A DNA stretch of 64,000 bases, from contig CM000153.2 of NCBI GenBank assembly GCA_000004695.1, forward strand, positions 4,768,001 to 4,832,000. The letters run 5' to 3'. This document shows, piece by piece, positions 19,507 to 38,948 of this stretch. Position 1 is the first letter of the stretch, and the number at the start of each line of letters is the position of its first letter. Below the pieces are notes generated by a model. The model had not been told where the DNA came from and made no database searches. It saw nothing but the letters and a program-made list of their open reading frames with translations. The position numbers and the translations under genes were made by a program. Source of the DNA: Dictyostelium discoideum (lineage: Eukaryota).

Positions 19507-20407
19507 TTAAACTCTTTCAAATGAAACTGTTGAGAAAGTTGGATTTACAACTGCTGAAACGAAACCAAATGAGAAAGAGTCACCAACTGGAAGAGTATTT
19601 ACAAATGATGGGAAACCTAAATTACCAGTTTGAGCATTTTTTTCAACATTCCAAAATTCAGTTGGATTCCAATTATCAGAGTGAATTTGAATTGATTTAA
19701 TTGCTGTGCTATCATTATTTGTTACTGTAACTCTATATTGATAATAGTGTACATTATTTGAATCCCATTGCCAATCAATATCTAATTTATAATTAAATTT
19801 TAATGGTCCAGTTGGTGGTTTGGTTGTTGGTGATGGTGTTGTTGTTGGTGTAACTGTTGGTGTATTACAAGGTTCACCATAGTAAAGTCTTGGACATGTG
19901 TCATATGATTTTAACTATAATCAAAAAATTAAAATTAATTTATAAGTACTATTTAAAATCAAAAAAAAGATTATCTATTTTGTTTATACTTACTGCCAAT
20001 GCATAATAAAAGTTATTTAAATTAAAGAAACCAACATTACCATTACAAGTAAGCTGAGTATTTATTTGTTTTAATCTAAGATTACCATCACTTAATCTAA
20101 TACTAAAATCTTCAACACGGAATTGATCATCAGCTGCAAATGGTTGAACTAATCCGCCACGACTACAAGTTGTTTCATAGGTTTGTAAATTGTATAATGA
20201 TTCCCTTAATACAAATTCACCAGATGCGAAAACAAGATTACCTTTATAACCTTCTTGAGCCAATGATTGAGAATGAACACCAGAGATTGAAACTTGAACA
20301 CATTTTGATGGATCAGCTAATGATGAAAGTAATTGATTACAACTATTATCACCAAATGCAACTGATGAAACACCTAATAATGCAACTAATGAATATAATA
20401 ATTTCAT
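19507..20407 (-). CDS. Secreted two-domain protein, family copy 1 (273 aa): signal peptide, 4-Cys N-terminal domain, TPTV-type Thr/Pro linker, and a W/Y/N-rich C-terminal beta-domain resembling a carbohydrate-binding module. complement(join(19507..19914,19994..20407))
   Basis: MKLLYSLVALLGVSSVAFG signal. Exon 1 ends …NNFYYALA|gtaagt. Exon 2 reads LKSYDTCPRLYYGEPCNTPTVTPTTTPSPTTKPPTGPLKFNYKLDIDWQWDSNNVHYYQYRVTVTNN…FSTVSFERV*. Track ORFs 20140..20436 (+) and 19488..19700 (+) are antisense artefacts. Confidence 0.65.
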
Positions 20408-20613
20408 TTTTTTTAAATAGGAATATTTTAAAATAAATAGTATTAAAGAAAATTGAATATTTTATAAATTTAAATTTATAATTATTTAATTGATGATAAT
20501 TTAATGATTTATTAAAAAAAAAAAAAACCAATCTATTTATACGTTTTTTAAAAAAATAAAAATAATAATTATTAAAAATGAAAAAAAATATAAAAATAAA
20601 AATTCTGTATATT

Positions 20614-20666
20614 TGTGTATGTAACTGTGGTTATTTTTTTGTGTATGTAATAGTGATTGGAGTTTC
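20614..20666 (-). promoter_or_regulatory. G/T-rich (G-box-like) element ~210-260 bp upstream of secreted-protein copy 1, containing GATTGGAGTTT
   Basis: 'tgtgtatgtaactgtgg…gtgtatgtaatagtgattggagtttc'. Related elements sit upstream of copy 2 (22873-22902 'gtgtgggtgaatatgtgtgtgtaagtaggg') and copy 3 (39245-39293 '…ttgtgtgagtgggttggagtttg'), in the same orientation and at a similar distance from each ATG. Confidence 0.3.
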
Positions 20667-21670
20667 AATATAAATATTTATGTGAAAATAGCACTATTGC
20701 TATTGGTCACTTTAGTACATCCATTTTCAGAATATAAAAAAAAAACCAATTTTCCAATCCATGAATCTGTGTTTTTCCACTTTTATCATTTTTACCTTTT
20801 TCAAAATACATCAATATATATATACACACAATGTGAGGGTTAAAAAAATTAACTGAGCACATAAAAAAATTTAACACAACCCCAAAGTATATTAACACAA
20901 CATAATAATTATTTATTTTAAAAAATTAAAAAAATGTATTGGGGGGGTGGGTAGGTAGGTGAAAGTTAATTAATTCTATATATAAAAAAAATTTGTAATA
21001 TTTTAATTCTTTTGATTTTATAAATTCTATGAATGTTTTATTATAAAAAATAAAAACAATTATAATTTTTTGAGAATAATGTAAATAACAACTTATCAAT
21101 AACTGAAAAAAAAAATTAATTATTTTAATTTCGTGTTAAATAAATAAAATGATTGTATATTTTTTTTATATTTTAAAAAAAATATAATGACATTACAAAT
21201 TAAAAAATTGATGAAGAACTTTGTAAAAAGGCAAAAAATAATGGTTTCTTTTTTTTTGATATTAATTTACCAAACTATAAAATGAATTGAAATTATTATT
21301 ATTATTGTATTTACTGTTATCTTTTGATTGTTATATTTGTGTTTTCTATCATAAAAATAGTAGCATTTAATTTTTGAATGCATCAGTTGGCATTTGCAAG
21401 TTCTCTTACTGGATTGAATAAATTAAATGCTAAATAAAAAAACTTAATATCCATTTTTTGGAATAACTAATTTAAAAAAATTATGAAGCAATTTAATATT
21501 GATGAAAAGAACAAAAAAAAGACTATGAAGCTCAAAAAATAATAACGGAAAATTGATTTTAAAGGTTTAGATATATATAAATAATAGAAATATTATTTTT
21601 TTTTTTTTTTTTTTATTATTATGAATATGTTAATAAATATTAAATAAAAAAATGATATTTTAAAAAGTTT

Positions 21671-22625
21671 TTAAGCCCTAACAATTTTAACAGTTGAAAA
21701 AGTTGGATTGGCAGTTGAAGAAACGAAACCAAATGAGAAGGATTCACCAACTTTGAGAGTTGATACGAAAGCTGGGAAACCTAAATTACCAGTTTGTACA
21801 TTTCTTTCAATATTCCAAAATTCAGTTGGATTCCAATTATCAGAATGAATTTCAATTGATTTAATTGCTGTGGCCTCATTATTTGTTAAGGTTAATTTAT
21901 ATTGATAATATGTTACACCACTGGTTATCCATTGATTGTCAATATTTAATTTATAACTAATTTTTGGTGTTCCACTTGGTGTAGTAGTTGGTGTAGTAGT
22001 TGGTGTAACTGTTGGGGTAACTGTTGGAGTAACAGTTGGAGTAACAGTTGCTGTTGGTGTAACTGTTGGTGTATTACAAGGTTCACCATAGTAAAGTCTT
22101 GGACATGTGTCATATGATTTTAACTAAAATTAAAAAAAAAAAAAAATATATATTAATATGAAAAATGATAATAATGATAATGAAAATAATAATAATTAAT
22201 TTTATACATACTGCAACTGTATAATAAAAGTTATTTAAATTGAAGAAACCAACATTACCATTACAAGTAAGTTGAGTATTAATTTGTTTTAATCTAAGAT
22301 TACCATCACTTAATCTAATACTAAAATCATCAACACGGAATTGATCATCTGCTGAAAATGGTTGAACTAATCCACCACGGCTACATGTTGTTTCATAGGT
22401 TTGTAAATTGTATAATGATTCCCTTAATACAAATTCACCATTGGAGAAAACAAGATTACCTTTATAACCTTCTTGAGCCAATGATTGATAATGAACACCA
22501 GAGATTGAAACTTGAACACATTTTGATGGATCAACTAATGATGAAAGTAATTGATTACAACTGGTATCACCAAATGCAACTGATGAAACACCTAATAATG
22601 CAACTAATGAATATAATAATTTCAT
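21671..22625 (-). pseudogene. Family copy 2 of the secreted two-domain protein, with an expanded (TPTV)n linker. It carries a +1 frameshift (extra G in a GGG run at 22080-22082) 15 codons into exon 2, giving …GEPL*. complement(join(21671..22124,22212..22625))
   Basis: Exon 1 (414 nt) is intact and ~95% identical to copies 1 and 3. Exon 2 is 454 nt (3n+1). The plus strand reads 'gtattacaagggttcacc' where copy 1 has 'tgtattacaaggttcacc' and copy 3 'tacaaggttcacc'. Downstream sequence stays homologous in the shifted frame. Either a very recent pseudogene or a homopolymer sequencing error. Confidence 0.5.
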
Positions 22626-37281: not shown

Positions 37282-37424
37282 TAGGAATGATCTTAAATTC
37301 TTCAGGTGTCGTAATTCATTCAAATACCAACACTACAGGTCAAACTACAAATAGATCAGAAAGAATTCCAATTGTACCAGATAGCGATTCAGGTAATAAA
37401 CAACCAGGTTGTTGTTCAAATTAA
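36109..37424 (+). CDS. rab21: Rab21 small GTPase (5 exons), C-terminal prenylation motif CCSN. join(36109..36154,36252..36395,36503..36722,36839..36927,37285..37424)
   Basis: Spliced product MTDTEKSFKVVLLGEGCVGKTSIVFRYIDNIFNDKHLMTQHAGFFQKHINIGGKRICLTIWDTAGQERFHALGPIYYRGSQGALVVYDITDNDSFIKAKNWIKELKTMLGNDISLCIIGNKCDLEKTRVIPLADAEAYAKSVGAIHYSTSAKLNKGIEELFLDLTRRM… matches human RAB21 nearly residue-for-residue through the G domain. Intron 4 carries (AAT)~30. Confidence 0.85.
37187..37280 (+). repeat. (AAT)~31 microsatellite inside rab21 intron 4
   Basis: Direct reading. Confidence 0.9.
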
Positions 37425-37668
37425 TTTAAAAAACAATAATATCAAATAAATATCAATATGAACCCAAATTAATATCACATCGTTGTTGTCATTTTTATTC
37501 TTATCATACCGCAATTTCGTCATCATTCATTTACATTACTATAAACAATTCTTATCTCATCACCATCATCATTATATCAACAATACGTTTCCATCCTCGC
37601 AATAACCAAGTTTTAAAAAAAAAAAAAAACAAGAAAAGAAAAAAAGAAAAAAAAAAAAAGAAGAAAAG

Positions 37669-37699
<31 letters not shown>

Positions 37700-38033
37700 G
37701 AAAAAAAAAAGGAAAAAAAAAGAAAAAACATATAAAATAGATAAAATTAAATTTTAATTTTTTAAACCTTGTAAAATTTTTATATAAACATTAAGAATAT
37801 AATTTTACCTATTTTTTAATTTTATATTATTTTTTTTTTAAATAAAGTTTACTTTTTCTTTTAAAGTGAATAAAAAAAAGAAAAAAAAAAAAAAAGCAAA
37901 AGATTTTTGTTTATAGTTTTTTTTTATTTGTAAAGTTAATAGAATAAAAAGGATTTTTTAAATAAATTGTTAGATTGATATATATATATAATAAAATAAA
38001 ATTTATATATATTGTGATTGTTATTGATTATTT

Positions 38034-38948
38034 TTAAGCTTTAACAATTTTAACAGTTGAAAATGATGGATTTAAAGTTGCAGATACAAAACCAAATGAG
38101 AAAGAATCGCCAGCTTGAAGATTAACAACAAATGGTGGGAAACTTAAATTACCAGTTTTTTGACTTCTTACAATATTCCAAAATTCAGTTGGATTCCAAT
38201 TATCAGAATGAATTTCAATTGATTTAATTGGTGAACTTTCATTATTGGTTAATGTGACTTTATATTGATAATATGTTACACCATTGGCTACCCAATTACT
38301 ATCAGTATCTAATTTATAATTGATTTTTGGTGTTCCAACTGGTGGTGTTGTTGGAGCAACTGTTGGTGTTGGTGTAACTGTTGGAGTAACTGTTGGTGTA
38401 TTACAAGGTTCACCATAATTAAGTTTTGGACATGTATCATATGATTTTAACTAAAAAATTTATTATATTAAATAATTGATTTGAATTAAATTAATGATAA
38501 TAGTTATAATTATAATAATAATAAAAATACATACTGCAACTGTATAATAAAAGTTATTTAAATTGAAGAAACCAACATTACCATTACAAGTAAGTTGAGT
38601 ATTAGTTTGTTTTAATCTAAGATTACCATCACTTAATCTAATACTAAAATCATCAACACGGAATTGATAATCAGCTGCAAATGGTTGAACTAATCCACGA
38701 GAACTACATGTTGTTTCATAGGTTTGTAAATTGTATAATGATTCCCTTAATACAAATTCACCAGATGCAAAAACTAAATTACCTTTATAACCTTCTTGAG
38801 CCAATGATTGATAATGAACACCAGAGATTGAAACTTGAACACATTTTGATGGATCAGCTAATGATGAAAGTAATTGATTACAACTGGTATCACCAAATGC
38901 AACTGATGAAACACCTAATAATGCAACTAATGAATATAATAATTTCAT
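38034..38948 (-). CDS. Secreted two-domain protein, family copy 3 (276 aa); same architecture as 19507..20407. complement(join(38034..38450,38535..38948))
   Basis: Exon 1 is 414 nt, ending FYYTVA|gtatgt. Exon 2 is 417 nt: LKSYDTCPKLNYGEPCNTPTVTPTVTPTPTVAPTTPPVGTPKINYKLDTDSNWVANGVTYYQYKVTLTNNESSPIKSIEIHSDNWNPTEFWNIVRSQKTGNLSFPPFVVNLQAGDSFSFGFVSATLNPSFSTVKIVKA*. Confidence 0.65.

Follow-up and report, generated by a model that had tools for sequence, protein, structure and literature searches.

Why do three genes, one of them 16 kb away from the other two, share an almost identical first exon while the rest of their sequence has diverged? The question is raised by a 64-kb stretch of Dictyostelium discoideum DNA (GCA_000004695.1, contig CM000153.2, 4,768,001 to 4,832,000; hereafter the window), in which three secreted two-domain genes, all on the minus strand, lie at 19507-20407 (copy 1), 21671-22625 (copy 2) and 38034-38948 (copy 3). 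All coordinates are window positions. The loci are known, named D. discoideum genes and not a new kind of system. Our reading is that they are the sheathin-family paralogues ecmD, somE and ecmC, which go back to an old triplication, whose first exon has been homogenised by gene conversion and whose Thr/Pro linker changes its length by slippage; we give this account as a whole a probability of about 0.88. A G+C content of 14-32% together with short, AT-rich GT..AG introns is consistent with a dictyostelid, and the attribution to Dictyostelium in a preliminary description of the locus, made from the letters alone, was correct.

The sequence ATGAAATTATTATATTCATTAGTTGC is found exactly three times in the window, each time on the minus strand (20407, 22625 and 38948). 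Gene models were spliced at a GTAAGT or GTATGT donor and at an acceptor TAG directly before TTAAAATCATATGA. They yielded proteins of 273 amino acids for copy 1 (exon 1 19994-20407, intron 19915-19993 of 79 nt, exon 2 19507-19914), 288 amino acids for copy 2 (exon 1 22212-22625, intron 22124-22211 of 88 nt, exon 2 21671-22123) and 276 amino acids for copy 3 (exon 1 38535-38948, intron 38451-38534 of 84 nt, exon 2 38034-38450). The intron interrupts the same codon in all three copies and has GT..AG borders. Exon 1 measures 414 nt in each copy, is free of indels and shows 95.2-96.1% DNA identity, while exon 2 reaches 81-85%. These models reproduced exactly the coordinates, the strand, the two-exon structure and the shared intron position of the preliminary description, which had also put exon 1 at 414 nt and about 95% identity. 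Its architecture of signal peptide, Cys domain, Thr/Pro linker and beta-type C-domain was right as well, but the supposed 4-Cys domain of about 120 amino acids turned out to hold six Cys before the linker and to span the intron (residues 20-155). When the 64-kb window was searched by tblastn with either domain, no fourth copy appeared; a match of the N-terminal domain at 32847-32981 was dismissed as noise (E 1.7).

The protein of copy 1 matches XP_637596.1/Q54LG5 of D. discoideum AX4 exactly, and that of copy 3 is an exact match to XP_637606.1/Q54LF5; both carry the name 'extracellular matrix protein'. The primary study of the sheathins EcmC and EcmD is reportedly that of Wang, Slade, Gooley, Atwell and Williams from 2001 (Eur J Biochem 268:4334, PMID 11488929). 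The cloning of the two genes, and the demonstration that their products bind cellulose, are said to date back over 20 years. A 2026 proteome paper (PMC12821622) assigns the two accessions in its supplementary tables to ecmD (DDB_G0286647, 'sheathin D') and ecmC (DDB_G0286663, sheathin C). At no residue do copies 1 and 3 differ from these proteins. Between ecmD and ecmC the same tables place XP_637597.1/Q54LG4/DDB_G0286649, annotated as a 'carbohydrate binding domain-containing protein', to which Forbes et al. (PMC9117722) gave the name somE. Copy 2 is almost certainly this gene, because it adjoins ecmD and the independent assembly GCA_054883475.1 calls the same gene (288 amino acids, coding sequence and intron identical); the order of accessions and locus tags and the annotation with a CBM49 domain point the same way. 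Being 83-85% identical to EcmD and EcmC and having the same architecture, it is a third paralogue, although neither paper terms it a sheathin: it is labelled merely as a CBM49 protein (PMC12821622) or as a somatic-cell marker (PMC9117722). One study (PMC3899956) describes the sheathins EcmC/D/E as glycoproteins that are found together with cellulose in the sheath of the slug, and another (PMC12821622) counts ecmC and ecmD among the proteins for which cellulose binding was shown directly. What was first noted is a rediscovery of three annotated D. discoideum genes, whose names the preliminary description did not recognise.

All three genes are present in D. firmibasis in the same order and orientation (RB653_000200, ecmD-like; 000201, somE-like; 000204, ecmC-like), and the saposin-like, FKBP and Arf/Ras genes that surround them in D. 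discoideum lie beside them here, too. The conserved order runs saposins, somE, ecmD and FKBP, with ecmC beside the Arf/Ras gene; it is partially kept in D. dimigraforme, where at least the tandem pair, two of the three genes, was found. The syntenic orthologues in these two species show that the triplication is older than the species; it took place before D. discoideum, D. firmibasis and D. dimigraforme separated. Table 1 of PMC9117722 lists somE as conserved in D. discoideum only, unlike the clear syntenic orthologues that we see in both relatives. Homogenisation of exon 1, together with turnover of the family, may confound orthology calls among the sheathins.

Against this age stands the first exon. 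Paralogues of one species differ in it by a synonymous divergence (dS) of 0.05-0.18, orthologues by 0.38-0.53. For CBM49 the D. discoideum paralogues differ by a dS of 0.34-0.37, as high as between orthologues, and the nonsynonymous divergence (dN) is 0.14-0.26 between ecmD and the other paralogues and 0.045-0.095 between orthologues. Both these values and the DNA identities bear out the earlier remark that the C-domain has diverged further than the N-domain. When the whole loci including their flanks were placed in a multiple alignment and compared in a sliding manner, the orthologues were closer over the 400-nt 5' flank, the paralogues were closer between the ATG and nt 400 or so, and the orthologues were closer again over linker, CBM49 and 3' flank. 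Site patterns were counted in the two complete trios, those of D. discoideum and D. firmibasis: in exon 1, 21 sites group by species and 4 by orthology, while the corresponding counts are 0 and 21 in CBM49 and 1 and 20 in the 5' flank (Fisher p 2e-9 for exon 1 versus CBM49 and 3e-8 for exon 1 versus 5' flank). In neighbour-joining trees of exon 1 the species clades received 96-100% bootstrap, also with third codon positions alone; for CBM49 the ecmD orthologue clade received 100% and the species clades 0%. The introns are 70-76% identical, a level that shuffled AT-rich sequence also attains (0.76 +/- 0.05), and so they show only that they were not homogenised. Their first bases group by orthologue, with GTAAGT in ecmD and GTATGT in somE and ecmC.

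We conclude that exon 1 has been homogenised by repeated non-allelic gene conversion within each species, including the copy 16 kb away, because 21 species-specific shared changes, most of them synonymous, cannot arise from purifying selection. By divergence, sliding identity, site patterns and bootstrap, the conversion tracts cover 19994-20407 in copy 1, 22212-22625 in copy 2 and 38535-38948 in copy 3, all on the minus strand. They encode the signal peptide together with the larger part of the 6-Cys N-domain, and their limits are the 5' flank on one side and the intron on the other.

Three rival explanations had to be weighed. That the three copies are mis-assembled or collapsed duplicates of one gene, the possibility that the preliminary description itself had raised against its reading, finds an argument in the high identity of exon 1 and in nothing beyond it. 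Linkers and introns differ between the copies, the flanks are unique to each, and the coding sequences diverge by 9-12%. GCA_054883475.1 repeats the coding sequences and introns of copies 1 and 2 identically and contains the exact protein of copy 3, and each of the three proteins was detected separately by mass spectrometry (PMC12821622). The similarity is real and goes well past what chance would give, and we regard the probability of an artefact as negligible. A recent duplication within D. discoideum, which the preliminary description had favoured, would explain the near-identical first exons by want of time to diverge and would fit the closeness of the copies on one chromosome arm. It does not survive the comparison with the other species: orthologous syntenic copies exist in D. 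firmibasis (three) and D. dimigraforme (two), 5' flanks and CBM49 group by orthologue, the CBM49 dS of the D. discoideum paralogues is as large as that of orthologues, and the introns are saturated. Independent duplications in each species are spoken against by the conserved paralogue-specific promoters and C-domains. We consider a recent origin to be very improbable.

Strong purifying selection that includes synonymous sites, through codon bias or mRNA structure, could in principle keep exon 1 uniform with no gene conversion at all. The N-domain is indeed constrained, with an orthologue dN of 0.025-0.053 against a dS of 0.38-0.53, and the genes reach high expression in late development. Selection of this kind, however, would have to place one base in all D. 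discoideum copies and another in all D. firmibasis copies at 21 mostly synonymous sites, it is at odds with the 96-100% support of the species clades at third codon positions, and the orthologue dS of exon 1 is not reduced. This makes it improbable, if slightly less so than a recent duplication. Several points weigh against conversion and against the wider account. In CBM49 the orthologue clades of somE and ecmC are weak (40% and 31% bootstrap), so that some exchange may have occurred there as well. An ecmC-specific island at nt 248-280, which encodes SSRG and ADY, persists within the tract in both species; conversion is therefore patchy or selected against at this place. The comparison at DNA level covers three species, and an exact-sequence look-up of the copy 2 protein returned no AX4 accession, so that its identity rests on position and annotation. 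Finally, the fold discussed below for the N-domain is a prediction from an 11-sequence alignment, and its structural matches are generic.

Gene conversion thus stays our explanation for exon 1, and the history reads as follows. After the triplication, promoters, introns, linkers and CBM49 domains have diverged along separate paralogue lines, while exon 1 has been homogenised again and again in each species, in tracts that end at the AT-rich 5' flank, which cannot be aligned, and at the intron. At residue 21, ecmC has T in AX4, as somE does, and N in other strains, as in ecmD; this single site is only suggestive of exchange between the paralogues that is still going on. Exon-limited concerted evolution by non-allelic conversion has its textbook examples in the primate gamma-globin and opsin genes. 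The sheathin-type genes exhibit the same mosaic of segments that group by species and by orthologue, with a tract bounded by diverged non-coding DNA. Unlike the primate cases, they are amoebozoan, their intergenic DNA has 78% A+T, and one partner is 16 kb away.

The linker between the two domains follows a mode of change of its own. In copy 1 it is TPTVTPTTTPSPTTKPPTGP (19804-19863, minus strand; 20 amino acids, 5 x 12 nt), with a period of 6 called by Tandem Repeats Finder at 19816-19863. Copy 2 has 36 amino acids (21965-22072, minus strand; 9 x 12 nt) built from the unit ACACCAACAGTT and its variants, and the program finds 7.6 copies of a 12-nt unit at 21964-22054 (84% matches); reverse-complemented, this unit is a rotation of the ACTGTTACACCA repeat named in the preliminary description. 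The linker of copy 3 counts 24 amino acids (38328-38399, minus strand; 6 x 12 nt). All linkers are composed of 12-nt units of the ACA/ACT-CCA-ACA-GTT type or of 6-nt X-Pro half-units. Their length varies between paralogues and between species, and the ecmC linker has 22, 24 or 28 amino acids among D. discoideum strains. The linker sequences quoted earlier were exact in all three copies, and the slippage suggested for them fits the length steps of 12 (or 6) nt and the variation among strains. On our reading, the length shifts through replication slippage or unequal exchange within the repeat, between paralogues as well as between strains. An O-glycosylated Thr/Pro spacer with a MUD50-type epitope is expected of sheathins, and the linkers of the three proteins are presumably O-glycosylated.

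The N-domain comprises residues 20-155, about 135 amino acids, and extends across the intron: exon 1 encodes four of its Cys, and the first part of exon 2 the other two. An alignment that includes distant dictyostelid relatives shows no variation in the six Cys, in a QPF motif or in a KG motif. The domain gave no Pfam match, a sequence search of the PDB brought nothing meaningful, and no known domain family could be assigned. An exhaustive HMMER search of 1.84 billion representatives delivered relatives from dictyostelids only, namely D. purpureum, Polysphondylium violaceum, Cavenderia fasciculata, Tieghemostelium lacteum, Synstelium polycarpum and an N-domain-only paralogue of D. discoideum; repetitive proteins in this deep search (P0029-P0031) were dismissed as low-complexity matches. 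Most of these relatives combine the N-domain with CBM49, and some have the N-domain alone. By sequence search, the 6-Cys domain turned up in this small group of dictyostelid proteins only.

A first structural model, calculated for the full-length protein with 13 close homologues, had a predicted local distance difference test (pLDDT) value of 44 and left the N-domain unmodelled. The N-domain alignment with the distant dictyostelid relatives (11 sequences) was used for AlphaFold2 (AF2) instead, and the domain is now predicted to be a small up-and-down beta-barrel. A Foldseek search of the PDB with this model gave no match at E <= 0.001, and weak LolA-like or barrel matches are generic and were not taken as homology. 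Stand-alone N-domain proteins, which have a signal peptide and neither linker nor CBM49, were seen outside the window: ACTFIW_012605 of D. discoideum (P0024, 160 amino acids) with its relatives, and a P. violaceum protein (P0027, 152 amino acids). Their existence means that the predicted barrel would be an independent module.

As to what the N-domain does and why conversion is tolerated or favoured, we would offer one tentative idea, which we ourselves regard as rather unlikely. The putative barrel could be a matrix module restricted to Dictyostelia that is kept near-identical in ecmD, somE and ecmC because the proteins share one interaction surface. Such a surface might serve, for example, co-assembly or cross-linking into one sheath network, and it would leave promoters, linkers and CBM49 domains free to specialise; we hold this extension for no less doubtful.

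The C-domain had been likened earlier to cellulose- or carbohydrate-binding modules, and a profile hidden Markov model search, as proposed at the time, confirms this guess. All three C-domains match Pfam CBM49 (PF09478) with 86.3-90.7 bits against a cut-off of 23.4, over positions 1-79 of the 80 in the profile. The matches cover residues 179-258 in copy 1 (19555-19794, E 7.7e-26), 193-273 in copy 2 (21719-21961, E 1.7e-24) and 181-261 in copy 3 (38082-38324, E 1e-24), all on the minus strand. The CBM49 part of copy 2 has a pLDDT of about 70 in the AlphaFold model of the whole protein. Its best Foldseek neighbours in the PDB are the CBM2-type cellulose- or chitin-binding structures 1EXG, 2RTT and 2CZN (probability 0.96-1.0, with weak E values of 0.01-0.05), which agrees with the published relationship of CBM49 to CBM2; a PDB sequence search with the domain returned nothing meaningful. 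The domain would be a beta-sandwich or jelly-roll of the CBM2/CBM49 type. W203, W235, W241, F254 and F257 are invariant in 13 aligned sequences and may include the linear row of three surface aromatics by which CBM49 domains bind cellulose. The spacing of 38 between W203 and W241 equals that between W35 and W73 of the Acanthamoeba lectin Luke-2, and F254 and F257 then follow.

The Luke lectins belong to the same Pfam family, PF09478, and the first two cellulose-binding Trp of Luke-2 are spaced alike. They carry two or three CBM49 domains, however, whereas the sheathin-type proteins have one, and each of their jelly-rolls is closed by a disulfide, while the sheathin CBM49 lacks Cys. The CBM49 of plant class C GH9 endoglucanases (tomato SlCel9C1; Urbanowicz et al. 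2007) is a member of this family, too, but the Dictyostelium proteins have no catalytic domain. Fusion through a Thr/Pro linker to the Dictyostelia-specific, predicted 6-Cys barrel distinguishes the sheathin type from both the plant and the Luke proteins. Other Dictyostelium matrix and wall proteins with CBM49 (St15/staB, celB, ecmF/G/L, staD, somC and the SP85 region) are likewise secreted, late and cellulose-binding, and they come from families with extensive gene gain and loss. Each of the three proteins is made up of a cleavable signal peptide, a 6-Cys N-domain, a Thr/Pro linker and a C-terminal CBM49, the last of which would anchor the secreted protein to cellulose in the slug sheath, the stalk and other matrix.

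Alignment of the 5' flanks shows that the promoters are specific for each paralogue and conserved between orthologues. Copy 2 has a TGACGTCA palindrome at 22809-22816, at -191 from its ATG, which resembles a cyclic AMP response element (CRE) of the bZIP type and occurs once in the 64-kb window. The somE promoters of D. firmibasis and D. dimigraforme have GTGACGTCAAT in common with it at about -190, and the ecmD and ecmC promoters lack it. These alignments make TGACGTCA a candidate for a paralogue-specific regulatory site of somE. The ecmD orthologues share a ATGTACTAAAGTGA..AATAGCAATAGT block at about -330. CA-rich boxes (ACACAC/CACCC) stand 230-300 nt 5' of all three genes and of their orthologues, at about 20610-20660 for ecmD, 22862-22900 for somE and 39245-39290 for ecmC. 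They resemble the CA-rich or G-box elements of post-aggregative Dictyostelium genes.

Whether all copies are expressed, a question left by the preliminary description, is answered by published mass spectrometry, which detected all three proteins late in development (PMC12821622). In these data the ecmD protein appears at culmination and in the fruiting body, ecmC is low, and the DDB_G0286649 protein is present from the mound to the fruiting body and is the most abundant of the three. A lacZ reporter driven by the somE promoter gave weak activity, which was nevertheless seen in slugs and in every somatic cell type (PMC9117722).

Around the three genes we made a number of further observations. 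In D. dimigraforme the intron at the conserved position is 289 nt long in ecmD (L004, 10415-10703) and 162 nt in somE (L004); the corresponding introns have 75-90 nt in D. discoideum and D. firmibasis, and the expansion consists of AT-rich TTATTTAATAATTCATTTAAT-like units. Three saposin-like genes on the plus strand lie between copies 2 and 3, at 23930-24931 (333 amino acids), 25559-26032 (157) and 26459-26959 (166). They carry SapB_1/SapB_2 domains, and the arrangement is kept in D. firmibasis and D. dimigraforme. Possibly they are part of the amoebapore-like (Apl) family, whose member AplD acts in slug-stage defence; the study of aplD (PMC5890168), a gene to which they might correspond, gives no locus tags. 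Two adjoining small genes on the minus strand (32131-32509 and 32814-33228; 100 and 105 amino acids) have no Pfam match, and D. firmibasis has a similar pair of 105 and 104 amino acids at the syntenic place (L002, 928-2080). Microsatellites and homopolymers occur at 30238-30359, (ATT)40; 30788-30851, (TTA)21; 31134-31229, (ATT)32; and 23120-23241, a 122-nt A-rich run; such long pure repeats are typical of Dictyostelium intergenic and coding DNA. Compared with GCA_054883475.1 the window shows small indels outside the three genes: the offset to its locus L001 changes by 18 nt, and a few of the genes nearby are 4-6 nt longer or shorter.

In summary, the searchable literature yielded no earlier report of exon-limited conversion in these genes or of a barrel fold for their N-domain. 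Both the conversion and the predicted fold appear to be new, and they are modest additions to genes that were already named. The sheathin family provides a clean case of domain-specific concerted evolution, which can mislead orthology calls, as the example of somE illustrates. The conserved N-domain, to which no family is assigned, now has a confident predicted fold. If the proteins did share one interaction surface, the N-domain and not CBM49 would be the defining functional unit of the family, possibly a new carbohydrate- or protein-binding fold. The linker, finally, is a repeat whose length is polymorphic between strains. The concerted evolution, the predicted fold and the variable linker may all help research on the dictyostelid matrix and on multicellularity.

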